Below, one piece after another: positions 6 through 62,928 of a stretch of DNA of 64,000 nucleotides. The position numbers and the translations under genes were made by a program. Every line of letters begins with the position of its first letter. The stretch's first letter is position 1. Origin of the DNA: Patescibacteria group bacterium (GTDB taxonomy: Bacteria; Patescibacteriota; Minisyncoccia; Moranbacterales; DUUL01); the NCBI GenBank assembly GCA_015493225.1, contig WGDO01000031.1, positions 1,355-65,354 of the forward strand, in the 5' to 3' direction. The notes under the pieces are model-generated. The model saw only the letters and a program-made list of their open reading frames with translations. It ran no database searches and was not told the DNA's origin.

Positions 6-3000
6 TTGGTAGATAAAGAGTATGTGGATAATCAATTAATGTGGGAAATAATGCCGGCTAGTACCGGAGGAATGAGAATTCAGCCAAAAAATAATAGTGT
101 GCGACAAATTTTTGTGCAGAGAGATGATAATAGTTATACTCAGTTTAAGGTGAGGAATAATAATGACGCGGGCAATGGAGCGGGAGCTATTATTGAGTTG
201 AAGGGTTCTGGAGCAGACTATACCAATAATATGTATATTGGTAAGTATGGAGCAAGTTTTTGGATACCGGAATTACGAGATAATGGAGCAGTTTTAACAG
301 ATAAAAATCTTGTTATTGGTACCGCTTCTGATTCACATGAAATTCATTTTGTAACAGGAAATTCCTATACAGATTTGCAGCCTGTGGTAGTGGCCGATAA
401 TGAAGGGTTTAGATATACTTCTGATTTATCTGCGACTTTTGTGGATAGAACTTTGGTGGACAAGGCGTATGTAGACAATGCTATTATTGCTGGGACTAAT
501 AATATTTATACGGCGGACGGGACTTTGACTAGTGAAAGAGGGTTGAGTGGTAATGGAGGTGCGTTTGGGATTGCATTTACAGAATTAAATGAATTTAATA
601 TAGATGATACAGGCTCAATTAATTTTGAGGCTACGGGAGACGGTAATTTTACAGCTCCATCTTTTAATATAGGATCGTATAGTACTGTAACCCTTGATAT
701 GACAAGTGGAGTTTCTGCTATTTTTAATGACCATAGAGTTACAAAAACAGGCGTTGAATACGGAGCTGATTATTCTGCAAATTATACAAATCGTTCTTTG
801 GTGGATAAAGAATATGTAGACAATGCTATTACAGCTGGAATTAATAATATTTATACGGCGGATGGGACTTTGACGGGAAATAGAATTATTACTATGGGAA
901 CTAATAATCTTCAGTTTGATTCCGCCGGTCAGATAGGGTTATTATTTTTGGACAGTGTTAATAATAGGGTCGGAATTGGGACAAGTAGTCCAAATAACTT
1001 GTTTCAGGTAAGTGGGTTGATTGATTTTGATGATGCGACTTCAAGTACTTTTTTTGGAAAAGATGCCGGAACTAACAATACGGCCAACTTTAATACATTT
1101 ATTGGATTTGAAGCCGGCCAGGTAACAACTTCCGGTCAACAAAATGTATACATAGGATATAGGGCGGGTAATGCCAACACTACTGGAAAAAATGGTGTTT
1201 TTATAGGAGAGAGTGCCGGAACTATGAATACTACCGGTAAATCCAATACTTTTGTTGGGCGTAAATCTGGTGAAAATAATACAACCGGTAATGAAAATAC
1301 TTTTATCGGCAAAGAATCCGGTCGATATACTACTACCGGAGGAAATAATACCGGGCTAGGTACCCAATCTTTAAGAGGCAATACAACTGGTGAATATAAT
1401 ATGGCTTTGGGAAATAATTCTTTACAGTATTCTGCCAATGCCAATCGTAATGTTGCCATTGGGTTTAGTGCTTTAGGTGGGTTTGATCATGTATATAATA
1501 ATAATGTTGTAATTGGTACTGAGGCTGGCAATCAATCAGCGGATTTAGATGGATGTGTCATGATAGGGGATAGAGTTGGAGTGACAAATACCGTAAATAA
1601 TCGTTTAATGATTGATAATTCCGGAACAAATACACCGCTTTTGGATGGTTATTTTGATAGTGATATTTTGCGAGTAAATGGAACTTTTCAAATAAACGAT
1701 CCCAGCGGAACGGGGTATGCTTTTCCCATTGCCGATGGAACAAGTGGGCAAGTTTTACAAACGGATGGTAATGGAAATTTGTCTTGGGCTTCATCTTCTG
1801 GTGGTTCCGGAGTTACTGCCTCAAATGGCTTAACGGAAGTGGGAAATGATATTAGACTGGGCGGAACATTAACACAAAACACTACAGTGGGAAGTGATAC
1901 CGACAATAGCTATCTTATATTCAGAAATTATCAAAATAATATAGCATTTTTTTCTCATAAAGACAGTGCAAATTATTCATATTTGTCAATACATTCAGGA
2001 GCGGCTGATTTTCCGCATATAGCTTTTAGGACATATAATAATGGTAATAAATATGAAATATTGGCAGATAGTAGTTTAGGTGGAGTTATTACTGATGATA
2101 TAAATCATAGAGGTCTTCAATATTATGAAGATTATTCAGCTAATTATACGAATAGAACTTTGGTAGATAAGGAATATGTAGATAATCAAATTAGTCCATT
2201 TGACACTACTGCTAATGTTACCTCAAATGAAAACGACGATTATGCCAATGATGATTTTGTGTTTGGGTCTTCTAGCTTGGCTAATGACGGCAATGACAAT
2301 CACGATAGAAGATTTTTCTTTGATAAATCTAAGGCTGCGTTTAGGGCTGGTTATACTCCAGGTTCTGAATGGGATGATGCTAATGTTGGTGTTGGTTCAA
2401 TTGCATTAGGTAGCGGATATGTTGATGGTGAAGGTTCTATAACTAATGCTCCAATTGCTTCTGGTATTAGGTCGACAGCTATTGGTATCGATGCAGTTGC
2501 CAGCGGTGATGATTCATTCGCTATAGTGCGGTCTGAAGCTATTGGCAATACTTCATTTGCTATAACGAATGGTACTGCAAACGGCTCTAATTCAGTTGCA
2601 ATGTCTGGGGGTATAACTAATAGTTCCAATTCAGTTGCAATGGCACATGGTACAACAAATGGAAATTATGCAGTTGCTATTGGTAGTAATACTACTGCTT
2701 CTGCTTATGCAGTTGCAATGGGATATCTTTCAACGGCATCTGGTCAAGACTCTGTAGCAATGGGGCAAAATTCTACTGCCTCTGCACTTGGTTCTGTTGC
2801 CTTAGGTCTTAACCCTATTGCTTCTGGTAATGCGGGTATTGCCTTAGGGCAAGGGGTATTAGCTAAATCTTATGCTGAAATTGCTTTGGGTTCTTATAAT
2901 ACGGATTATAATCCTAACAATACTACTGATGTTGATTTGTCTGATAGGGCGTTTGTGATTGGTAACGGTATTAACGATGTAAATAGATCAGATGCATTTA

Positions 3001-6000
3001 TTATGCTAAAAGATGGTTCAAGTACGTTTACTAATGTAGCATCTTATGATGCTGATTATTCAGGTTCTTATACTAATCATTCTTTGGTAGACAAGGCTTA
3101 CGTAGATAATGCTGTTGCCAGCGGCGGTTCTTCCTCTTGGACCAAAACTGGAACAAACCTTTCCCCAACAACAGCAGGAGATGATGTTTTGTTAAGTGCT
3201 GGAGAAACATTAAGCATCGCTGATTTAGCTCAAGGTTCTATTCCTTTTATCGGTGTTGGAGGATTGTTTACTCAGGATAACAATAATTTATTTTGGGATT
3301 CCGGGAACAATACTATGGGCATTGGTACCAATACTCCTTCATCAGCTCTTGATATAAACTCAAATGGGGCTAATGGGGTAGCGATATTTACCATAGGCAA
3401 TACTGCCGGAGACATTCAAATGTTTAGAACAGATGCTACCCCAGATGGTTCGGTAGCTGGTTCAATTGGTGATTTGGCTTTTGACGGGACAAATGGTGAA
3501 GTGTATATTAAAAATTCTGGGAACGGAACAAATACTGGTTGGTTAAGAATGTTGCGACAGGGAGATTTGTCTTCTTTATGGGATGCAGATGCAGATACGG
3601 GAATTCAGGTTGAAGAAACAGCCGATGAAGATATGATTCGGTTTGATACGGCTGGCAGTCAGAGAATGATAGTAAACAATAATGGTTATGTTGGTATAAA
3701 TACAGAAAATTTTGCTCATAATGTTGCAACTTTTGGTTCTGTTTTACCAACGGTTAATATTGTACAATCAAATTTAACAATGGCTGGTATAAATATTGAT
3801 AGGTTTAGTGACGATGACCAACCGGCAAGATTTTCACTTGGAAAAGCAAGGGGTACTGAATCTACTCCGACAGTTCTTCAAGCGGGGGATGAAATTATGG
3901 AATTATCTGGCATAGCTTATGATGGTGGTCAATACATATCTTCAGGTGGTCTTATTGTAAAAACAGATGGAGTTCCGGGAGCAAATAATGTACCAACTGA
4001 AATGACTTTTTTAACTACTCAATCAGGTGCTTTAGGTTCGGATGAAAAAATGGTTTTGACTTCTGATGGTAAATTAGGTATTGGTAATTTGACTCCAAGT
4101 AGTACTTTACATGTCGAAAGTGTTTCTGGTAATGTTGCTGATCCAATTTTAACTTTAGAAAATGGTGGAGGAGATTTTCAAGTTTTTAATGTTGTTAATA
4201 GTCCAGAAAGTGATATTAGTGGCTCTATTGGAGATTTAGCAGTTGATAATACTCACGGTAATATATATATTAAAGGAACAGGGACAGGTACTAATACTGG
4301 ATGGTTGCAATTAGCCACAAATAGTGGTTCTTCTCCTTGGACTAAAACCGGAACAAATCTTTCTCCAACTGCTGCTGGAGATGATGTTTTGTTAAATGTC
4401 GGAGAAACTTTAAGTATTTCTGATTTAACTCAAGGTTCAATTCCTTTTATTGGAGCTAGTGGTTTAGTTTCCCAGGATAACAATAATTTATTTTGGAATA
4501 ATGCTGATAATAGGTTGGGGATTGGAACAACTAATCCAAATTATTCTTTAGCGGTAGTTGGAACTGGTTCCGGAACAAATGGAAGTTTGGAATTGGCAAC
4601 CTATGCTAATGCTGGACCCCCTTCTGCTTTGTATTTACATAGATCAGGTGGTACAGAGGCTGCACCTACAGCTGTAACAAACAGTATGCCAATGGGCGGA
4701 TTAATGACGGGAGGATATGATGGAACTAGTATGGTAGCATATTCTGCTGGGGTGCAAATGGATGCAACAGAAGATTGGTCTAATTCAGCCCATGGAACAA
4801 GACTATTTTTTTCAACAACAGCAAATGGAACAACTGGTATGAGTACTAAAATGGTAATTGACAATAATGGTAGGGTTGGCATAGGAAGTGCTATTACTCC
4901 AAATGCTTTATTGGATGTTCGTGGAGATGCAGTGTTCAATGATGATGCCGGAGATTATGATTTTAGAATTGAGGGAGATACTGATCAAAATTTATTTTTT
5001 GTGGATGCTGGGAATAATAGGGTGGGTATTGGTACGGCTACTCCTAGTGTTAAATTACAAGTTAGTGGACAGGCAAGAGCTTCCAGCTTTAGGTCGGCCA
5101 ATGGTACAGCTGGGTCTCCATCCTATAGATTTGATGGAGACACAAACACGGGATTATTTAGAGCGGCGGCCGATAATTTAGCTTTTACAACGGGAGGGTC
5201 TGAAGCAATGAGAATTGATGCTAGTGGCAATTTAGGACTTGGAATTACAGTTCCTACCTATAGGATGACAATAGCTGGAGGAGCGTTAATGTTGGATGGT
5301 ATTGCAGCAGCTCCAACTGCATCCCAGGGTTACGCCGGTATTTATACTAATAATGGAGAGTTATATGCTTTTGACGAAAGCGCTAATTCAACACAAATCT
5401 CTCCTCATGATAAGAATGGCAAGTGGTGGTATAACTCTACTAATTTAGAAACTGGTAGTACTCTGCAAATTAAAATGGAAGACTTGACTAAGGATTTAAA
5501 TAAACTCTTAGGAGGAGGATATATTTTGGAGAATGGAACATTAGTTGACGAGGGGCAAAATGTTATTGAAAATTTAAGAACTAATATTTTGAGTGAGGAT
5601 AAAGTTATAGAGGATTTACGAGAAGCGTTGAAAAACATTGATGTGGAGGAATTGGACAACAGGATTGATGATAATGAAAATTTGATTGGTGAAATTAATA
5701 ACAGTATTAAAAATATCATAGATGAGATCAAACAACTTTGGGAAAAGGTAACAAAAAATTCTGATGATATTGAGGGATTAAAGAAAGAAAATGACGAGTT
5801 AAAAAAAGAGCTTTGTAAAGAAAATGATGATTATTCTTGGTGTGAAGATAAGGATATTAATAATGAAGATAGTGGTGATGAAGAAAATAATAATGAAGAA
5901 GTTCAGAATGATGGACAGCCAATGGAAGAGGGAATTGTTGAAGATGATGCAGATAATGTAGGAGGGGATAATAATTCTGGGGTAGCAGAAGATACAATGG

Positions 6001-15490: not shown

Positions 15491-16630
15491 ATGCTTATAG
15501 ATACACATTGTCATTTAAATTTTAAGGATTTTAGGGAGGATGCAGATGATGTTATTAAAAAAACTTTAAATGAAGATGTTCAGATGATTATTGTTGGGTC
15601 GCAGTATTCTACTAGTCGGCGAGCGGTAGAATACGCAGATAAGTATAATAGAGATGGGCAGGGTGGTGTTTGGGCGGCGGTAGGAATTCATCCGGTACAT
15701 TTGACAAGTCAAAAGTCTAAAGTCAAAAGTCTAAAGTCAAATAATGATAATGATTTGCCGGAAAAGTTGAGTATAGAGAAATTTGATTATAGCAAATATT
15801 TAGAATTAGCGAAAAATGAGAAGGTAGTGGCGATTGGGGAGGTGGGATTGGATTATCATCATTTTGATACCGCGAATCTACAAATAAACTACAAATCTAC
15901 AAATGTTGTTAGTGAAGGGGTTGATAAAAATAATGATGATGATATGGAGCAGAGAGTGGTTGATTTTGAGATGGCTAAAAAGGAAGTGGCGGGGATTATT
16001 GAGTTGCAGAAAAGTGTTTTTAGGGATTTCGTAAGGTTGGCAGATGAAGTGGGGAAGCCGTTGGTAATTCATGGTTGGAATGCGGATAAGAAAGATAAAG
16101 AGTTAGTTGAGGGAGCGGTGGCGTATGAGGATATATTGGAAATAGTTAGTAGTTCACAGTTTACAGTTCACGGTAAGAGTGGTGATCAGTCAGTAGCTAC
16201 TAGTTCACGGGCTGGTCACTTAAAAACCCCCCATCCCCCTTTTCGCGAAAGGGGGGATGACCCCCTTTATCCCACTTCGCTGAAGCTTCGAGGGACAGGC
16301 ACAGGGGGTAGAAGAGGGGTGGTGCATAGTTTTATTGGAAATTATAAAATAGCGCTTAGATTTATTGAAGAGGGATTTGTAATTGGCTTGAATGGAATTA
16401 TAACTTATTCGGAAAGTTACGATCGGTTAATAAAAGAAATTGGTTTGGAGAATATTATTTTAGAAACAGATGCTCCGTATTTAACACCAAACCCTCTAGA
16501 GCGATACAGCCGTAATGAGCCATTAAATGTAAAATTAGTAGCTCAAAAAATTGCGGATGTTTTAGAAATAGATGTCGAAAAGGTAGAAAAAATAACAACT
16601 AAAAATGCTCAAAGGTTATTTAAAATATAG
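15491..16630 (+). CDS. tatD: TatD-family metal-dependent hydrolase (DNase) containing two repeat-derived in-frame insertions.
   Basis: The TatD motifs 'IDTHCHLNF', 'GEVGLDY', 'VHSF' and 'ETDAPYLTP' are present. The protein is ~120 aa longer than typical TatD because of inserts at ~15880-15960 and 16222-16316. Confidence 0.85.
   Translation: MLIDTHCHLNFKDFREDADDVIKKTLNEDVQMIIVGSQYSTSRRAVEYADKYNRDGQGGVWAAVGIHPVHLTSQKSKVKSLKSNNDNDLPEKLSIEKFDYSKYLELAKNEKVVAIGEVGLDYHHFDTANLQINYKSTNVVSEGVDKNNDDDMEQRVVDFEMAKKEVAGIIELQKSVFRDFVRLADEVGKPLVIHGWNADKKDKELVEGAVAYEDILEIVSSSQFTVHGKSGDQSVATSSRAGHLKTPHPPFRERGDDPLYPTSLKLRGTGTGGRRGVVHSFIGNYKIALRFIEEGFVIGLNGIITYSESYDRLIKEIGLENIILETDAPYLTPNPLERYSRNEPLNVKLVAQKIADVLEIDVEKVEKITTKNAQRLFKI
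16222..16316. repeat. G/C-rich palindromic repeat module 'ccccatccccctttcgcgaaaggggggatgaccccctttatcccacttcgctgaagcttcgaggga', in frame inside tatD.
   Basis: Near-identical modules lie in intergenic DNA at 29541-29665, 30703-30840 and 62868-62928. Here the module translates as HLKTPHPPFRERGDDPLYPTSLKLRGTG. Confidence 0.7.
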
Positions 16631-19069: not shown

Positions 19070-21445
19070 ATGAAAAATATTAACAAAATTTTTAAGAATA
19101 AATTTTTGGTTGGATTGGGTGTGATGGTGTTTTTGGTATTGGTGATGAGGTTGTGGTCATTTGGTAATTTGTTGACTTTTAAGATGGATCAGGCGAGGGA
19201 TATTAAATTAATTGAGGAGGCCTATGATGGAGGGGTTGGTGAATTACCTTTATTGGGTCCGCGGGCGGCGAAAACTTATTTGCGACTTGGTCCGATTTTT
19301 TATTATTTTGAATATGGGGCGATGTTGATTTTTGGAGATCAACCTTGGTCGGTGGCGGTGCCGGACTTGATTTTTTCTATCTTGGCTATTCCCTTATTTT
19401 ATTATTTTTTGCGACAAGCTTTTAGTCGCAAGGTGAGTTTTTTGACGACGATAGTTTTTGCTTCGTCGTTTTTTCTTAATCAATACGGGCGATTTGCTTG
19501 GAATCCGAATTCCATTCCGTTTTGGAGTTTGTTGTATTTTTTGGGGATATATAAGGTAGTCAATCCCACTTCGCTGAAGCTTCGAGGGATAAAAAGTCAA
19601 AAGTCCATAAAATCTGTAAAGTCTATAAAGCCAAAAGTCGAAAGTTTACCCCGTCGAATGACTTTGGGTCGAAAGTCAGATGTTAATGTTTTTAATAGTA
19701 AAGGCAGTGATTTAAAAACCCCCCAAAATTTTCGTTCCTCAAATTTTAACCCCCTTTATACAGGGGGTGGTAAATGGTGGTTGTTGGTGGCGGTGATAGG
19801 TTATGGGGTGGCTAGTCAGTTGCATTTTACGGCAATGTTGGCATATCCTCTGATTGGGGGATTATTTGTATTGGTGATTGCGTTTTGGGAAAGTTGGAAA
19901 GAGGGTAATTCAAGAGAAAATAAAAATATATCAAAAAACAAAAAAATATTGTCAATTGACTACTTGACTATACGGGGTTTGAGGAGGTTTGTTTGGAGAT
20001 TGGGACAAGGAATTTCCTGGAAATATTGGTTGGGAGCGGTGATGATTTTGGGAGTGATGTATTTACCGATGGTTTTGAGTGAAATTTACACTCATGGAGA
20101 TAATTGGGTTCAGTTTAAGTATGCTTTGAGCGGGAGAGGGAAGCCTGAATTTTCTTTGTATGCGAAAATTATTCAGTCGGTGAAATTGCATAGTGAATAT
20201 TTTTGGTTTAGTTTAACGTCTTGGGGTGGAGGAGCAGGAACTGTTGGTTTGATTGGTTTTTTTGGTGTAGTGATTGGTGCTATATTTAGTGTATGGAAAA
20301 AATTTCAAGATACAAAATACAAGGTACAAACAAATTCCAAGATACAAGATACAAGGTACAAACAAATGACAAATGACAAATTACAAATGATAAATGATGG
20401 TGAGGAAATGACAAATGATATTGGTGTAAATAAAACAGAAAAACCCCCCAAAGTTTCTCGTGATCTCGAAACTTCCCCACTTCGTCAAAATGACTTCAAG
20501 GGGCAGGCGCCAGGGGTGGATGACAGAGTAATATTTTTTGTTTTGGTTGGTGTTTGGTGGATGGTGATGTTTTTGTTGTATACGAAGTTGGCGTTTAATG
20601 TGTTGAAACCGAGATATTGGTTATTGGAGGCGCCAATTTTTTTTGTGGTGTTGGCGGTTTTTTTGGAGGGGTTGTTTAGAAATGGGCTTAAGAAGATTAA
20701 GGGGAAATATGTTACTTATTTAGTGGTGATCGTTTTAGTAGGGATGAATTTGTGGGCGACGGGGAATTGGTATTGGGAATTGAAGAACCAAAAAGATAGT
20801 TCGTTGCCACTATGGCATTTGAAATTAAAAGACCAAAATAAAATTCCTTGGGGGCAATTGCAAAAAAGTGCAAATTATATTGAAAATTTATCTAAACAGA
20901 CGGATAAGGAGGTTTGTTTTTATACGACAGGAGAATATCGTCCGGTTTATGATTATATTTTTAAGCAACGGGGATTGAGTGAAAAAATTAGACGAATATC
21001 TTTTAGTAAGGATACAAATGATAATTGTTTGTTTATAGCCATTGATCATCATCAGCATAGAGAAACTCCGAGAATTCCAAAAGATCATAAAAATGAGTTT
21101 GAGAAAGTAGAGAAGAGGGAGGTTGGGTTTGTGACAATATGGCAAGTTAAAAAAAGAATACAAGAAACAAGACACAAACAAATTCCAAGGTACAAGAAAC
21201 AAGACACAAACAAATTCCAAGGTACAAGAAACAAGATGCAAATAAATGACAAAGCACAAACAACAAATGACAAGTCGCAAATGACAAATGACAGTGGGGG
21301 AATGACAAATGACAAATTACAAATGACAAATAACAGGGAACAGGGAGCAGTGAATAAGGAGCAGGGAGTAGAGAATAATAAAAAGAAAAAAGTTAAAAAG
21401 CCGAGGAGGGTTGAGAGGGTAAGGTGGAAGGACTTATTTAATTAG
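19070..21445 (+). CDS. GT39/PMT_2 (ArnT-like) family membrane glycosyltransferase carrying multiple repeat-derived insertions.
   Basis: About 12 TM helices. The N-terminal region 'KMDQARDIKLIEEAYDGG...LGPIFYYF' is typical of dolichyl-phosphate-mannose/undecaprenyl-phosphate-dependent glycosyltransferases. Inserts are at 19561-19690, 19715-19785, 20300-20530 and 21160-21345. Confidence 0.5.
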   Translation: MKNINKIFKNKFLVGLGVMVFLVLVMRLWSFGNLLTFKMDQARDIKLIEEAYDGGVGELPLLGPRAAKTYLRLGPIFYYFEYGAMLIFGDQPWSVAVPDLIFSILAIPLFYYFLRQAFSRKVSFLTTIVFASSFFLNQYGRFAWNPNSIPFWSLLYFLGIYKVVNPTSLKLRGIKSQKSIKSVKSIKPKVESLPRRMTLGRKSDVNVFNSKGSDLKTPQNFRSSNFNPLYTGGGKWWLLVAVIGYGVASQLHFTAMLAYPLIGGLFVLVIAFWESWKEGNSRENKNISKNKKILSIDYLTIRGLRRFVWRLGQGISWKYWLGAVMILGVMYLPMVLSEIYTHGDNWVQFKYALSGRGKPEFSLYAKIIQSVKLHSEYFWFSLTSWGGGAGTVGLIGFFGVVIGAIFSVWKKFQDTKYKVQTNSKIQDTRYKQMTNDKLQMINDGEEMTNDIGVNKTEKPPKVSRDLETSPLRQNDFKGQAPGVDDRVIFFVLVGVWWMVMFLLYTKLAFNVLKPRYWLLEAPIFFVVLAVFLEGLFRNGLKKIKGKYVTYLVVIVLVGMNLWATGNWYWELKNQKDSSLPLWHLKLKDQNKIPWGQLQKSANYIENLSKQTDKEVCFYTTGEYRPVYDYIFKQRGLSEKIRRISFSKDTNDNCLFIAIDHHQHRETPRIPKDHKNEFEKVEKREVGFVTIWQVKKRIQETRHKQIPRYKKQDTNKFQGTRNKMQINDKAQTTNDKSQMTNDSGGMTNDKLQMTNNREQGAVNKEQGVENNKKKKVKKPRRVERVRWKDLFN

Positions 21446-25745: not shown

Positions 25746-25802
25746 AAAAACCCCCCAAAATTTTCGTTCCTCAAATTTTGACCCTCTTTACACAGGGGGT
25801 AG
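25746..25802. repeat. Composite module 'aaaaccccccaaaattttcgttcctcaaattttgaccctctttacacagggggt'.
   Basis: Same family. It lies at the 3' side of recG (minus strand), after a long AT satellite at 25540-25745. Confidence 0.75.
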
Positions 25803-32058: not shown

Positions 32059-32155
32059 GATTATAATTAAGTGATTGACTAGGGTTGGTTTATTGAGTAG
32101 TATATAAATAAGTGTTTAATGCTTGTAAATTAAAAGTAATTAAAAATATAAACTT

Positions 32156-34009
32156 ATGCTAAAAGATAAGGTAGAAAAAATTATTAGGGAAGTTTTGGGG
32201 AAGATGGGGGTGGAGTATGATGGGGAGATAGAATTGTCTGCTCCGCCGAAGGTGGAGATGGGTGATTTTGCGTTTGGGTGTTTTCCTTTGGCGGGAATTT
32301 TGCAGAAATCTCCCAATGAGGTGGCGGAGAAATTAGTGGAGGAGATTAATGGTTTAATCAGTGATAATAGTGAGGTAAGTGATTTGATTGAGAGTGCGGA
32401 AGCGATGGGACCGTATGTTAATTTTAAATTGAAAAGGGGAATGTTGTTTAATGATGTTTATGAAAGTATTATTGATGATGGTAAAAACAAAAGGAAAACA
32501 GAAAAACCCCCTCAGTCCCCCTTTACAAAGGGGGAAGATGGTAAGGATACAGAAAAACCCCCTCAGTCCCCCTTCAAAAAGGGGGAGGATAATAAGAAAA
32601 AAGTAATGGTGGAATATTTGTCCCCTAATACTAATAAACCATTGCACTTGGGGCATTTAAGAAATGGAACCTTGGGAATGGCAGTAGCTAACATTTTAGA
32701 GGCGGGGGAAAATAAGGTTATAAAGGCAAATTTAATTAATGATAGGGGGGTACATATTTGTAAAAGTATGTTGGCCTGGAAATTATTTGGAGAAGGAGAA
32801 ACGCCAGAAACAACTGGATTAAAAGGAGACCATTTTGTTGGTAAATATTATGTTAAGTTTGCCGAGGAGGCAGAAAAAAATCCAGAATTAGAAGAACAGG
32901 CCCAGGGAATGTTACAAAAATGGGAAGAAGGAGATAAAGAGGTGAGGAAATTATGGGAAATGATGAATAAATGGGTGTTTGATGGATTTAACAGTAGTTT
33001 TGAAGCTTTTGGTTTTGATTTTGATGTAATTTATAGAGAATCGGAAACTTATAAGTTAGGAAAAGACATTGTTAAAAATGGATTAGAAAAAGGAATTTTT
33101 AAAAAAGAGAAAAATGGGGCAGTTGTTTTTGTTTTGCCGGATAGTTTCGGCTTAGATGAGGATGGAAATAATAAAAAGATTACGGTTTTAAGGAAAGATG
33201 GAACGAGTGTTTATATTACGCAGGATTTGGGAACAGCCGTGTTAAAGGCGGAGGAATATAATTTAGACCAGTCTATTTATGTGGTTGGTTCTGAGCAAGA
33301 ATATTATTTTAAGTCGTTGTTTGAAATTTTAAAAGCTCTTGGTTATCCTTGGGCGAAAAATAGTTACCATCTTTCCTATGGAATGGTTTATTTGCCGGAT
33401 GGTAAAATGAAATCTAGGGAGGGTAAGGTTGTGGATGCCGATGATTTGGTGATTAAGGTTAAAAAAATGGCTAAGGATGGTATTAGAGAGCGTCAGGGGG
33501 ACAAAAAAATTGATGAGACTGAGTTAGAAGAGAGGGCATTGAAAGTTGCTTTGGGGGCGATTAAATTTTATTTATTAAAAGTCGGTCCGACTCAAATTAT
33601 TCATTTTGATCCAGAAGAATCTTTGTCTTTTGAGGGTTTTACGGGTCCTTATTGTCAATATGCCTATGCTCGAGGCTCAAAATTATTAAGGGATGCTGAG
33701 GTTGAGCAGGAGAAAAAAATGAAAGTTGATTTTTCGGTATTGGGGTCTAAAGAGGAATTGCAATTGATTCAGAAAATTTTGGAGGGTGATGATAAAATAG
33801 AAATGGCTGGGGAGAAATTTAATCCTTCTTTGATAGCAGTGCATATTTTTGAGCTAGCAAAAACTTTTAATCAATTTTATCACGGGGAAACTATTTTAAA
33901 AGCGGAGAATAATGTGAAGTTGGCTCGTTTGGCGTTGGTACAAATCTTTTTACAGACAATTAAAAAAGAGTTGGGGTTGTTGGGGATTGAGGTGTTGGAG
34001 GAGATGTAA
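32156..34009 (+). CDS. argS: Arginyl-tRNA synthetase containing a tandem in-frame repeat insertion.
   Basis: 'PNTNKPLHLGHLRN' (HIGH region) and a DALR anticodon-binding C-terminus. The insert 'KTEKPPQSPFTKGEDGKDTEKPPQSPFKKGED' is encoded by two tandem copies of a palindromic module. Confidence 0.9.
   Translation: MLKDKVEKIIREVLGKMGVEYDGEIELSAPPKVEMGDFAFGCFPLAGILQKSPNEVAEKLVEEINGLISDNSEVSDLIESAEAMGPYVNFKLKRGMLFNDVYESIIDDGKNKRKTEKPPQSPFTKGEDGKDTEKPPQSPFKKGEDNKKKVMVEYLSPNTNKPLHLGHLRNGTLGMAVANILEAGENKVIKANLINDRGVHICKSMLAWKLFGEGETPETTGLKGDHFVGKYYVKFAEEAEKNPELEEQAQGMLQKWEEGDKEVRKLWEMMNKWVFDGFNSSFEAFGFDFDVIYRESETYKLGKDIVKNGLEKGIFKKEKNGAVVFVLPDSFGLDEDGNNKKITVLRKDGTSVYITQDLGTAVLKAEEYNLDQSIYVVGSEQEYYFKSLFEILKALGYPWAKNSYHLSYGMVYLPDGKMKSREGKVVDADDLVIKVKKMAKDGIRERQGDKKIDETELEERALKVALGAIKFYLLKVGPTQIIHFDPEESLSFEGFTGPYCQYAYARGSKLLRDAEVEQEKKMKVDFSVLGSKEELQLIQKILEGDDKIEMAGEKFNPSLIAVHIFELAKTFNQFYHGETILKAENNVKLARLALVQIFLQTIKKELGLLGIEVLEEM
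32500..32590. repeat. Tandem 'gaaaaaccccctcagtccccctt(t/c)a(c/a)aaaggggga' palindromic module, x2, in frame inside argS.
   Basis: Read directly. Related intergenic copies are at 35828-35866, 43640-43678, 54676-54713 and 62154-62195. Confidence 0.8.
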
Positions 34010-34136: not shown

Positions 34137-35019
34137 ATGGGATTTAATTTGCCTGAAATAAAAAAGAATAATTCTGAAATCGCAGAGAAAGATGTGGAGT
34201 TAAAAGAGCTCTATAAGCAGACGACAGTATATATTAATGCTGGAGGCAGGGGAACTAGATTAGAGCCAGTTGTTCAAAAAGGTGACCATGGTGTTACAAA
34301 AGCCCTTTTGCGATTTGATGGGGAAACTTTGATTGAAAAACATATAAAACTGTTATCCAATTTTGATTTTGGGAGAATAATTGTGGGGGGGGGGCGATCA
34401 TTTAAATCTTACACAATATTTACAGCAACAAGATTTAGAGAATGTTATTATTGATAATACAGAAAAACAGGAGGATACGGGAGGTGATTTGATTAAGGCA
34501 ATTCGTAAACATAATTGTGGGAAAAATATTTTAGTGGAAAATGTTGATACAATTTTATTAGTAGACAATTTTGATAGATTATTAAAACAACATAACAAAA
34601 CTAATGCTTTAGGAACTATCGTATTAACCACTAAAAAAGGTGTGCCAAATGAAGGGGCTTTTTATGTTAATGAGAATGGCAAGGTGATTTTTAGTAGCGA
34701 GGCACGAAATCAATCATCTGCAGAAGAGCCAAGTAATTGGACTGGATTTCGTGGTAGTAGTACGGGGGCAATTATTTTTTCTACTGATTTTTTAAAACAG
34801 TATAATTGGAAAGCTGGTGATGGTAAATTATCAATTTATAAAGATTTAGTTCCAGAATTAATAGAGATGGGTGGGTTGTATGCGTATGATAATGAAAATA
34901 ATTTCTTTATGGATGTTGGGACACCTGATAAATATAAACAAATTAAAAGGCACCCAAAAATTTTTGGGGCAGTTGGTGCCAGATATTTAAAAAATAAAAA
35001 TAATTATTATGGCAAATAA
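34137..35019 (+). pseudogene. Nucleotidyltransferase (sugar-phosphate NTP-transferase fold) gene split by a +1 frameshift at a G10 homopolymer. It may be phase-variable, or the extra G may be a sequencing error.
   Basis: The upstream ORF (34137-34454) carries the 'INAGGRGTRLEPV' NTP-transferase G-loop. The G run at 34385-34394 has 10 G. Removing one G fuses it in frame to ORF 34381-35019, giving ...IIVGGGDHLNLTQY... Confidence 0.6.
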
Positions 35020-35605
35020 AAAAAATGAAATCAAGCCATGGGAAGAGGTTTCTAGGGAAGTGATGTTTGAGAAATTTGGGAGGGGAATTGAGAAAGTTCT
35101 TTTTCGGCAGAGTGATGGTGAGGAGTATGATGTGTATGTAAAAAAGGAGGCGGTGTCTGTGGCGGTGGTAGCCTTAACAAAAGATAGGCAAGTTATTTTA
35201 ACCAGGCAATTTCGTCCCGGTCCAAAAAAGGTCTTGTATGAATTGCCCGGTGGTGGCTTGATAAAGGGAAAATCTTTACAAGAATCAATGGAACAGGAAT
35301 TATTAGAAGAAACGGGCTATCAAGGTAAGATGAAATTTGTAACCAGTTTAGTTGATTGCGGATATTCTACGAGAGTAAAAAATTGTTTTGTGGCGACGGA
35401 TTGTGAAAAAGTAGAAGATATTGCCGGAGATTTACACGATGATGATGGTGATGCACGAGGATTTAAAGAAGAGATTGAGGTGGAATTAGTTTCTTTAAAA
35501 GAATTTAGAGAATTATTAAGAGGTGGACAGAATAGTGATATCGAGATTGGGTATTTGGGGTTGGATTATTTGGGGTTGTTGGGAGGGGATAGCAGTGATA
35601 AATAA
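35009..35605 (+). CDS. NUDIX hydrolase.
   Basis: Nudix box 'GGGLIKGKSLQESMEQELLEETGY'. The start overlaps the upstream stop (ATGGCAAATAA). Confidence 0.8.
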   Translation: MANKKNEIKPWEEVSREVMFEKFGRGIEKVLFRQSDGEEYDVYVKKEAVSVAVVALTKDRQVILTRQFRPGPKKVLYELPGGGLIKGKSLQESMEQELLEETGYQGKMKFVTSLVDCGYSTRVKNCFVATDCEKVEDIAGDLHDDDGDARGFKEEIEVELVSLKEFRELLRGGQNSDIEIGYLGLDYLGLLGGDSSDK

Positions 35606-35896
35606 TAAATAGGCGGATTGCAAAGTTTGTAGGGTTTATAAAGTTTATAAAGAAAGCTGGAAATAAATTTTAATTTGTAATTTGTAAATTTTAATTCAAA
35701 ATAAAATTTTTAATATTTAATTTTAAAATTATCAAATATTTTAGTTGGATGTTTGTTTTAATTATTTAAAATTAGATATTTAGCTTTGAATTAAAATTTA
35801 AAACTTAAAATTTAAAATTTTTAGAAATCCCCCCTTACCCCCCCTTTAAAAAGGGGGAAGAACCGTAAACAACGCCGAAATATCCAATGGTCCAGT

Positions 35897-43435: not shown

Positions 43436-43785
43436 TCCTTTGGTTCCCCTCCTTTGGTAAAGGAGGGGTTAGGGGAGGATTTGGTTTTTCAAATTTGAAA
43501 TTTTCAATCTCATCCCTAAACGGGAGATAAAAATTTGCAATGTTTAAATTTAAAATGATTGAAATAATGGTGAACTTAGAGCATTAGATGACTTATAGTT
43601 TGTTTGTAAAAATTAAAATTTAAAACTAAAAATTCTAAAAATCCCCCCTTAGTCCCCCCTTTACAAAGAGGGGAAACTAGGAAACAATTCTTTCTTTACA
43701 AAAAGAAGAGAAAATTAGAAAATAACTATCCCTTCACCGTAAACATTAAATTATGCACTATAAACTAAATAATTAAAACAAAAAT

Positions 43786-54640: not shown

Positions 54641-54751
54641 CTAGAAAAGGTTGGGGGTGGATTTCAATTCTTAAAATCCCCCCTCAATCCCCCCCCCTTA
54701 CAAAGGGGGGAAGCTAGAAAAGTAGCAAATAATTAAAATAAGTATAAACAA

Positions 54752-55090: not shown

Positions 55091-55303
55091 ATGTAATGAG
55101 GGGCTGTTTAATTTACCCCCTGTCTAAAGGGGGTCAAAATTCGAGGAACGAGAATTTTTTGGGGTTTTTCTGTTTGTTACTTAAAAACCCCCGAAGCCTG
55201 AACAAATTCTTTTTATTCCGCTTCGCTGACGCTACGCGGACTAAAAAGAATTTATCCAGCCTTCCGCCCCCTTTAAAAAGGGGGCAACTTGGAATCAATG
55301 GTT

Positions 55304-62088: not shown

Positions 62089-62258
62089 GTTGTTGTGAAT
62101 TTATGAATTTATAATTATGAATTTATGATTTTACGATTTTAGATATATTGTAAATCCCCCTCCAGTCCCCCTTTAAAAAGGGGGAGGGCTGAGGAAATTT
62201 TTTAAAATTACTAACCTCCTAACTTCCTAAATTCTTAACCTCTTAATCTCTTAATCTC

Positions 62259-62867: not shown

Positions 62868-62928
62868 AAAACCCCCCATCCCCCCTTTCGCGAAAGGGTG
62901 GGATGACCCCCTTTACACAGGGGGTGGA
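62868..62928. repeat. G/C-rich palindromic module 'accccccatccccctttcgcgaaagggtgggatgaccccctttacacagggggtgg'.
   Basis: It combines the 'cccctttcgcgaaagggg' and 'cccctttacacaggggg' palindromes. It sits between ssb and rpsF. Confidence 0.75.

Follow-up and report, generated by a model that had tools for sequence, protein, structure and literature searches.

Can a bacterium of the candidate phyla radiation (CPR; Patescibacteria) switch a gene on and off by gaining and losing single bases in a homopolymer? Phase variation of this kind is textbook material for a few host-adapted pathogens; to our knowledge it is essentially undocumented in the CPR, none of whose members can be grown, and little is understood of how they interact with host cells. 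The question is raised by a run of ten G residues (G10) that interrupts a gene for a predicted sugar-phosphate nucleotidyltransferase in DNA from a Patescibacteria group bacterium (contig WGDO01000031.1 of assembly GCA_015493225.1, positions 1,355 to 65,354 of the forward strand). This whole 64-kb stretch is called the window here, and positions are counted from its first letter. From comparison of the locus with its relatives, we think it probable, though well short of certain, that the poly-G tract is hypermutable, changes length by slipped-strand mispairing, and so acts as a reversible ON/OFF switch for a module of two genes, the second of which encodes a NUDIX hydrolase.

The run lies exactly at 34385-34394, as the first-pass annotation had it, in DNA of 34.3% GC (30-35% had been estimated for the genome), and it occupies codons 83-86 of what would be a gene of 293 codons. 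The open reading frame (ORF) upstream, 34137-34454, encodes 105 amino acids (aa), bears the INAGGRGTRLEPV loop and ends at a premature TGA (Table 1), and the ORF downstream, 34381-35019 (212 aa), is in the +1 frame with respect to it. When the tract was reset in silico, G9 gave a single protein of 293 aa and G12 one of 294 aa, while G8 and G11 gave stubs of 88 and 89 aa, and G10 the 105-aa product, which was absent from the protein records looked up. The repaired (G9) protein matches the Pfam family NTP_transferase (PF00483) in one stretch that spans the junction and aligns residues 35-270 with profile positions 6-239 of 245, at 45.4 bits (cut-off, 21.2), and a PF12804 match also runs across it. 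Because the Pfam match is unbroken over the junction only after the repair to G9, this is one gene that has been interrupted. The earlier proposals that the run splits a single nucleotidyltransferase gene, and that nine Gs would restore one enzyme, are thereby borne out, the size of the enzyme being 293 aa and not the ~294 aa then suggested.

Does the length of the tract vary in nature? Exact-sequence look-ups and 90%-cluster listings yielded 11 further contigs, or 12 with the window, and three lengths are represented. The window has G10, out of frame. The in-frame G9 is present in L001 (ENA, SAMN10217875), L002 (Logan SRR18691003), L014 (ENA ERZ27262687) and L015 (Logan SRR8439053), and G8, again out of frame, in L003 (ENA, SAMN10217872), L004 (JGI 3300028400), L010 (GCA_027039385.1), L011 (ENA, SAMN10217879), L012 (GCA_026990405.1), L013 (Logan SRR14510437) and L016 (Logan SRR14326976). 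An extra G8 carrier is implied by two products, P0122 (88 aa) and P0126 (179 aa), called on a 5,353-bp NCBI contig. Such differences are found even between DNAs that are otherwise the same: the alignment of L014 (G9) with L004 (G8) extends for 2,921 bp without a mismatch, its one gap being the tract, and the G8 contigs L004, L012 and L013 are identical to the G9 contigs L014 and L015 across 830-848 nt flanking it. Between L001 and L004, which are 98.4% identical, there are only two indels, the tract and an intergenic G5/G6 run, and within the gene the tract is the sole indel in all pairwise comparisons. When tract lengths were mapped onto haplotypes, at least three independent changes were required; the same 848 flanking sites are free of further indels and have about 0.1 substitutions each. 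Tract length is concordant within groups of near-identical contigs drawn from different sources (L001 = L002, 100% identical over 7,060 bp; L010 = L011 = L016; L004 = L012 = L013; L014 = L015), and this concordance argues against random miscalling. Sister genomes thus give what a slippage switch predicts, namely G8, G9 and G10 among near-identical genes that are otherwise intact and under purifying selection. It had been reasoned beforehand that orthologues that were also split would point to a fixed pseudogene; they are in fact split or intact at differing tract lengths, sometimes on an identical background.

The G5/G6 run just mentioned, which is situated just 3' of the NUDIX gene (position 7442 of L001, compared with L004, L014 and L016), accounts for the one remaining indel between relatives that are 98% identical, so short G runs elsewhere in these genomes vary too. 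A pattern scan with the tract and its flanks gave only L004 among metagenome contigs and nothing among genome contigs, and a protein-based scan of genome contigs gave only the end of contig L009 (residues 1-29, stopping before the tract). L009 (JALWDQ010000947.1, 2,133 bp) is a low-coverage contig whose gene end is binned in a metagenome-assembled genome (MAG) labelled Calditrichia, probably through a binning error.

Apart from the tract, the gene gives every sign of being maintained. With nine Gs in the tract, every copy can be translated from end to end, and there is no other stop or indel in any of them. By the Nei-Gojobori method, the ratio of nonsynonymous to synonymous substitution rates (dN/dS) was estimated for the window against four haplotypes (L001/L002, L003, L004); it is 0.08-0.11, at a dS of 0.29-0.36, and it is similar before and after the tract. 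From the low dN/dS and the lack of secondary lesions it follows that the out-of-frame alleles are not old pseudogenes; in the lineage of the window itself the gene may still have been inactivated very recently, because that lineage is known only as G10. A fixed pseudogene was considered as a candidate and set aside, the tract itself being the single lesion in a gene with a dN/dS of about 0.1.

The tract is a local innovation. In an alignment of 77 homologues the site has the motif (I/V)(I/V)VGAGDH, in which position 85 is Ala in 66 of the 77 and Gly in three, and G86 is invariant. The closest homologue, P0001 (92% identical, intact, 296 aa), has IIVGGGDHL there, as has the repaired window protein. 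Two distant relatives encode the site as GTC GGC GCC GGT and as GTA GGA GCT GGT, within an uninterrupted ORF and with no tract. Since the distant homologues are free of the tract and position 85 is typically Ala, the tract is derived within this small clade, where it would have arisen, to judge from the codons, by an Ala-to-Gly replacement together with the presence of G at three wobble positions. It has been retained while the gene diverged by about 8% at the nucleotide level and the wider locus by about 13%.

How would the switch operate? Slipped-strand mispairing during replication would add or remove single Gs, and so give rise to heritable changes of +1 or -1. G9 (or G12) would be the ON state, producing full-length enzyme, and G8 or G10 would be OFF. 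The window would then be a snapshot of the OFF state (G10), in which translation is expected to stop after 105 aa, leaving a 212-aa fragment that lacks the nucleotide-binding G-loop. Ribosomes in OFF cells would halt 555 nt (G10) or about 600 nt (G8) ahead of the start of the NUDIX gene. Since the NUDIX start lies inside the end of the nucleotidyltransferase gene (an overlap of 11 nt), with no evident Shine-Dalgarno sequence or other obvious ribosome-binding site, the OFF state probably lowers NUDIX expression too, through the loss of translational coupling. Scanning the surroundings of the locus for promoters and terminators yielded nothing informative. Homopolymeric contingency loci are recognised by a tract of at least about 7 nt within an ORF, usually in its 5' part, and the present locus has four of their sequence-level features: a tract in an ORF, a frame switched by one unit, length polymorphism on conserved flanks, and a gene that is otherwise intact. 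Established loci of this kind also switch reversibly and often in clonal populations, govern a phenotype such as a surface structure or a restriction-modification system, and typically, though not necessarily, occur several to a genome.

Table 1. Features of the tract-bearing locus (window positions)
Feature	Positions	Strand	Basis
5' part of sugar-phosphate nucleotidyltransferase gene, codons 1-83, frame 0, including G-loop GGRGTRL	34137..34384	+	ORF list, Pfam match, homologue alignment
G10 variable tract; first G is third base of Val GTG, then Gly codons; frame kept only by G9 or G12	34385..34394	+	In silico reset; 12 contigs
3' part of nucleotidyltransferase gene, ~208 codons, +1 frame in G10 allele, no other lesion	34395..35019	+	ORFs; dN/dS ~0.1 for this half
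Premature TGA met in frame 0 of G10 allele, giving 105-aa truncated product	34452..34454	+	ORFs
NUDIX hydrolase gene (ADP-ribose/NDP-sugar pyrophosphatase-like; NDP, nucleoside diphosphate), ATG within last 11 nt of nucleotidyltransferase gene	35009..35605	+	Pfam PF00293, PDB sequence matches, pair conservation
A8 run at nucleotidyltransferase/NUDIX junction	35018..35025	+	Sequence; A7 in three related contigs

The junction between the two genes contains a second slippery run. In relatives it reads ...CAAAC(A8)TGA, and the window likewise has A8, but in L010 (at about position 1868), L011 and L016 the run is A7 instead. The shorter run removes the nucleotidyltransferase stop and brings its frame into register with that of the NUDIX gene, which is reflected in a called product of 345 aa (P0128), and it puts the normal NUDIX ATG out of frame. 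Unlike the state of the G tract, the A7 state tracks phylogeny: its three carriers are 99.9% identical, and A7 looks like a single inherited event.

Several considerations weigh against the tract being a switch. Its length is not significant by composition alone: under a first-order Markov model 0.23 runs of at least ten Gs are expected per window, and in shuffles that preserved dinucleotides the observed number of G9/C9 matches (three) was equalled or exceeded in 17 of 100 trials. It is the sole G/C run of 7 nt or more within coding sequence of the window (the C9 at 54689-54697 and the C7 at 35838-35844 lie between genes), and a single coding tract in 64 kb is unlike the situation in the classical contingency-rich genomes; the search for further G/C homopolymers that the first-pass annotation had in mind for the genome has, as far as the window goes, turned up no other coding tract and no sign of a contingency repertoire. 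The evidence for length variation comes from consensus contigs, of which some may be re-assemblies of the same samples (so that the number 12 overstates their independence) and several are short (1.5-6 kb) and probably of low coverage. For the lineage of the window itself G10 is the only length known, and there was no in-frame allele of it in the 90% clusters. Lastly, the gene is outside any cluster for surface structures, and has no assigned substrate.

If not its length, the context of the run is unusual: no other G/C run of 7 nt or more lies within coding sequence, and its improbable codons count in favour of a switch. GGG accounts for 20% of Gly codons in the window and GTG for 26% of Val codons, so that the probability of Val-Gly-Gly-Gly being written GTG GGG GGG GGN is about 0.01 under window usage, and the seven other Gly-Gly-Gly tripeptides in window ORFs are all encoded with codons that break the run.

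The main rival explanation is homopolymer miscalling: the true tract would be G9 everywhere, and G8 and G10 would be errors of sequencing, polymerase chain reaction (PCR) or assembly. G tracts are indeed a known trouble spot for Illumina sequencing and PCR, and Illumina reads misbehave at them (PMC9187656); this too tells against a switch, as does the fact that a difference confined to the tract, like that between L004 and L014, is also what one would get from assembling the same or similar reads twice, and that several carriers are small contigs of the kind just described. Yet 8 of the 12 consensus calls would need to be wrong, and wrong in the same way within groups of near-identical contigs from different sources, and the G10 allele is on a 90-kb contig (JALUMK010000029.1, from MAG GCA_027039935.1). 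The assembly is also without the general homopolymer noise typical of an error-prone platform. Window ORFs contain 20 A/T runs of 8-9 nt, every one of them intact and in frame, and apart from the G tract neither a homopolymer that breaks a frame nor a split gene was found in the window (adjacent same-strand ORF pairs carry complete, distinct domains: DUF192, SLAC1, DUF134, Sua5, GT4). Moreover, the A7/A8 run at the junction follows phylogeny cleanly. The sequencing-error alternative is therefore weakened, and we regard it as unlikely, albeit the most serious competitor.

It is less likely still, in our estimation, that we are dealing with recent, non-adaptive gene loss, in which a mutable tract within a dispensable gene has brought about its inactivation independently in several lineages. 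The preponderance of out-of-frame contigs (again 8 of 12) would accord with this, and the OFF haplotype of L010, L011 and L016 also has the A7 run disrupting the normal NUDIX start, possibly a second lesion; but a dN/dS of about 0.1 at a dS of about 0.3, with no further stop or indel in any copy, speaks against it, in-frame and out-of-frame alleles occur on one identical background, and the gene pair is conserved across distant Patescibacteria.

Recoding, by which RNA polymerase slippage or ribosomal frameshifting would yield full-length enzyme from the out-of-frame alleles and 'OFF' would merely be leaky or attenuated, seems to us very improbable as the main design (it may add leakiness), since the three lengths demand shifts of opposite sign (G10 opposite to G8), an in-frame allele exists, the out-of-frame layout is not conserved (the ORF of distant relatives is uninterrupted), the following 120 nt offer no stimulatory RNA structure, their fold being no better than that of shuffled sequences (z = -0.17), and efficient transcriptional slippage in bacteria is documented mainly for A/T runs; this is despite out-of-frame alleles being in the majority, the G8 run providing a heptamer (G_GGG_GGG) so registered that a -1 shift would yield the wild-type protein, and simple repeats being able in principle to cause non-standard decoding (Baranov et al., 2005, PMC1088944). 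Two other candidates were rejected outright: a stand-alone, functional 212-aa C-terminal protein, because this fragment is without the invariant G-loop, and genetic code 25 (TGA = Gly), because translation table 11 leaves long ORFs intact and the TGA that ends the orthologues is right where the NUDIX gene begins.

What, then, might a slippage switch at this position control? The homologues of the repaired protein are proteins of about 285 aa from metagenomic bins of Patescibacteria/Parcubacteria type. The GGRGTRL loop corresponds to residues 36-42, of which G36, G37 and G39 are invariant in the 77 homologues. A search of the PDB by sequence gave only one weak match (7whr), so the enzyme had to be placed by a comparison of folds. 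For P0001, an AlphaFold2 model based on the 77-sequence alignment was of high confidence (predicted local distance difference test score, pLDDT, 94.2; predicted template modelling score, pTM, 0.91) and has a predicted Rossmann-like nucleotidyltransferase fold; its best Foldseek matches in the PDB were the catalytic domain of ADP-glucose pyrophosphorylase, the GDP-mannose pyrophosphorylase VTC1, and HddC (E ~1e-15, 21-24% identity). In the NCBIfam search all matches were far below the equivalog cut-offs (e.g. glgC, 33 bits against 425), and the protein did not belong to a named equivalog such as GlgC, ManC or MurU. It is thus a predicted sugar-1-phosphate nucleotidylyltransferase without an assigned substrate. 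With other PF00483 enzymes (the GlgC catalytic domain, GDP-mannose pyrophosphorylase, HddC) it shares the GGxGTRL loop and a Pfam match above threshold; unlike them, it has no C-terminal left-handed beta-helix domain, and it represents a Patescibacteria-specific subfamily that is always paired with NUDIX.

The NUDIX partner resembles ADP-ribose/NDP-sugar pyrophosphatases (NudF, NudE) in family-profile and PDB sequence matches. The two genes are adjacent also in the distant relatives L017 (59% identity) and L018 (52%), where all other neighbours differ, and as the pair has been kept in unrelated contexts it may be called a conserved two-gene nucleotidyltransferase-NUDIX module. Its window neighbours are the ArgRS and SecA genes and, on the opposite strand, a gene for an unknown protein. 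The context lends no support to the premise, taken over from familiar contingency loci, that this is a surface-polysaccharide gene: there is no glycan cluster around it, and in L017 and L018 too the pair is a stand-alone module. A role in surface polysaccharides is conceivable only insofar as glycan synthesis draws on NDP-sugars. Tentatively, and with less conviction than we attach to the switch itself, one can envisage a contingency locus in a CPR episymbiont, in which the poly-G tract would toggle an NDP-sugar synthase/NUDIX module, and the A7/A8 run would toggle between separate and fused enzymes, so varying a trait dependent on nucleotide sugars, such as a surface glycan that might benefit the cell in attachment to its host or in evasion of phages.

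Automated annotation splits or drops the nucleotidyltransferase gene in most of the deposited assemblies, giving products of 88, 164, 179, 212 or 345 aa. Its surroundings differ between relatives. Two extra genes, for an AAA_18/AAA_33 kinase-like protein (197 aa) and an unknown protein (333 aa), are located directly upstream of it in L003 (874-2473, where they sit between the ArgRS and nucleotidyltransferase genes), L013 (117-1716) and L016 (258-1259), and are not found in the window, L001 or L014. About 1 kb upstream of the homologous nucleotidyltransferase gene of L018, which is from Komeilibacteria, a reverse transcriptase gene (RVT_1) lies beside a bAvd-like gene (2655-4034), to all appearances the signature of a diversity-generating retroelement. 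The NUDIX gene is a mosaic: the window and L003 have one type (91% nucleotide identity over the aligned nucleotidyltransferase-NUDIX segment, with four gaps), and the genes of L001 and L004 have a strongly diverged central segment, which suggests recombination out of step with the neighbouring gene.

The ArgRS gene (32156-34009) is mosaic as well. Compared with L001 (4146-5819) and L014 (327-2048), the first ~95 residues of its product are largely identical and the remainder is far more divergent; whole-protein identity is 41-42%, and the DNA can be aligned only at 32068-32428, which suggests that the body of the gene has been replaced by recombination or transfer. Inside this ORF are two tandem, in-frame copies (32480-32590) of a repeat, encoding ...KTEKPPQSPFTKGEDGKDTEKPPQSPFKKGED..., that are absent from the ArgRS of L001 and L014; the insertion presumably resembles the in-frame palindromic elements of Rickettsia. 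The repeat belongs to a family of approximate form aaaaaCCCCCC-N3-5-CCCCC(C)TTTACAAAGGGGG, a C-run/G-run hairpin with at least ten copies in the 64 kb, mostly intergenic (16227-16265, 19719-19767, 25751-25800, 32507-32585, 35829-35857, 43643-43675, 54678-54710, 55116-55133, 55267-55284, 62167-62184 and 62872-62924), and holds the window's other long G/C runs, the C9 and C7 mentioned above. The + strand of the window, which carries most of the long ORFs, has a strong excess of G over C (14,260 against 7,700).

If the poly-G tract is a true switch, minimal genomes use mutational bet-hedging, the conserved nucleotidyltransferase-NUDIX module is marked out as determining a trait under fluctuating selection, and the G8, G9 and G10 states provide a simple marker of population state in public metagenome reads. 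Our full-text literature searches brought to light no account of homopolymer phase variation in Patescibacteria/CPR, the nearest being of a hypervariable gene with a 9-mer repeat in a Gracilibacterium, which is a different phenomenon (PMC6851277). A literature search on the mismatch-repair status of Patescibacteria gave nothing usable, and one for the accessions of the samples and assemblies brought up no paper.

Among known systems, Vibrio cholerae O1 offers a partial parallel: a homopolymer frameshift in a gene of a sugar-nucleotide pathway there reportedly brings about ON/OFF heterogeneity, the genes concerned being manA and wbeL. Phase-variable O-antigen biosynthesis genes with poly-A tracts are on record for this organism (PMC3441752). 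They differ from the window gene in the base of the tract, in their location within the O-antigen cluster, and in having a known surface phenotype and known selection by phages. The intragenic poly-G/poly-C contingency loci known from Campylobacter jejuni, Neisseria and Helicobacter, such as Cj1295 and pgtA (PMC3068675, PMC2193922, PMC8355987), are also comparable: like the window tract, they are G/C homopolymers of 8-10 nt in the 5' third of an ORF, in which one nucleotide switches the frame and lengths differ among near-identical strains while the gene is otherwise intact, and their targets are often sugar-modifying enzymes. These organisms, however, are host-associated pathogens with dozens of tracts per genome and measured switching, whereas the window comes from an uncultivated environmental MAG with one coding tract in 64 kb, and its target, known from sequence comparison, is a cytoplasmic nucleotidyltransferase outside any glycan cluster.

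Close in layout, too, are the pilus genes bbr_0113 and bbr_1889 of Bifidobacterium breve UCC2003, which are turned ON and OFF by replication slippage at intragenic G tracts (PMC9187656). The product in that case is a surface pilin, and switching has been verified by maximum-depth sequencing and in mice, whereas the evidence from the window is comparative. In both systems, nevertheless, two annotated ORFs flank a G tract (G10-G12 in B. breve) and are fused by the in-frame length; in B. breve, furthermore, the genes downstream rely on the fused ORF being translated, and the length in the database differs from that of the majority of the population (PMC9187656).

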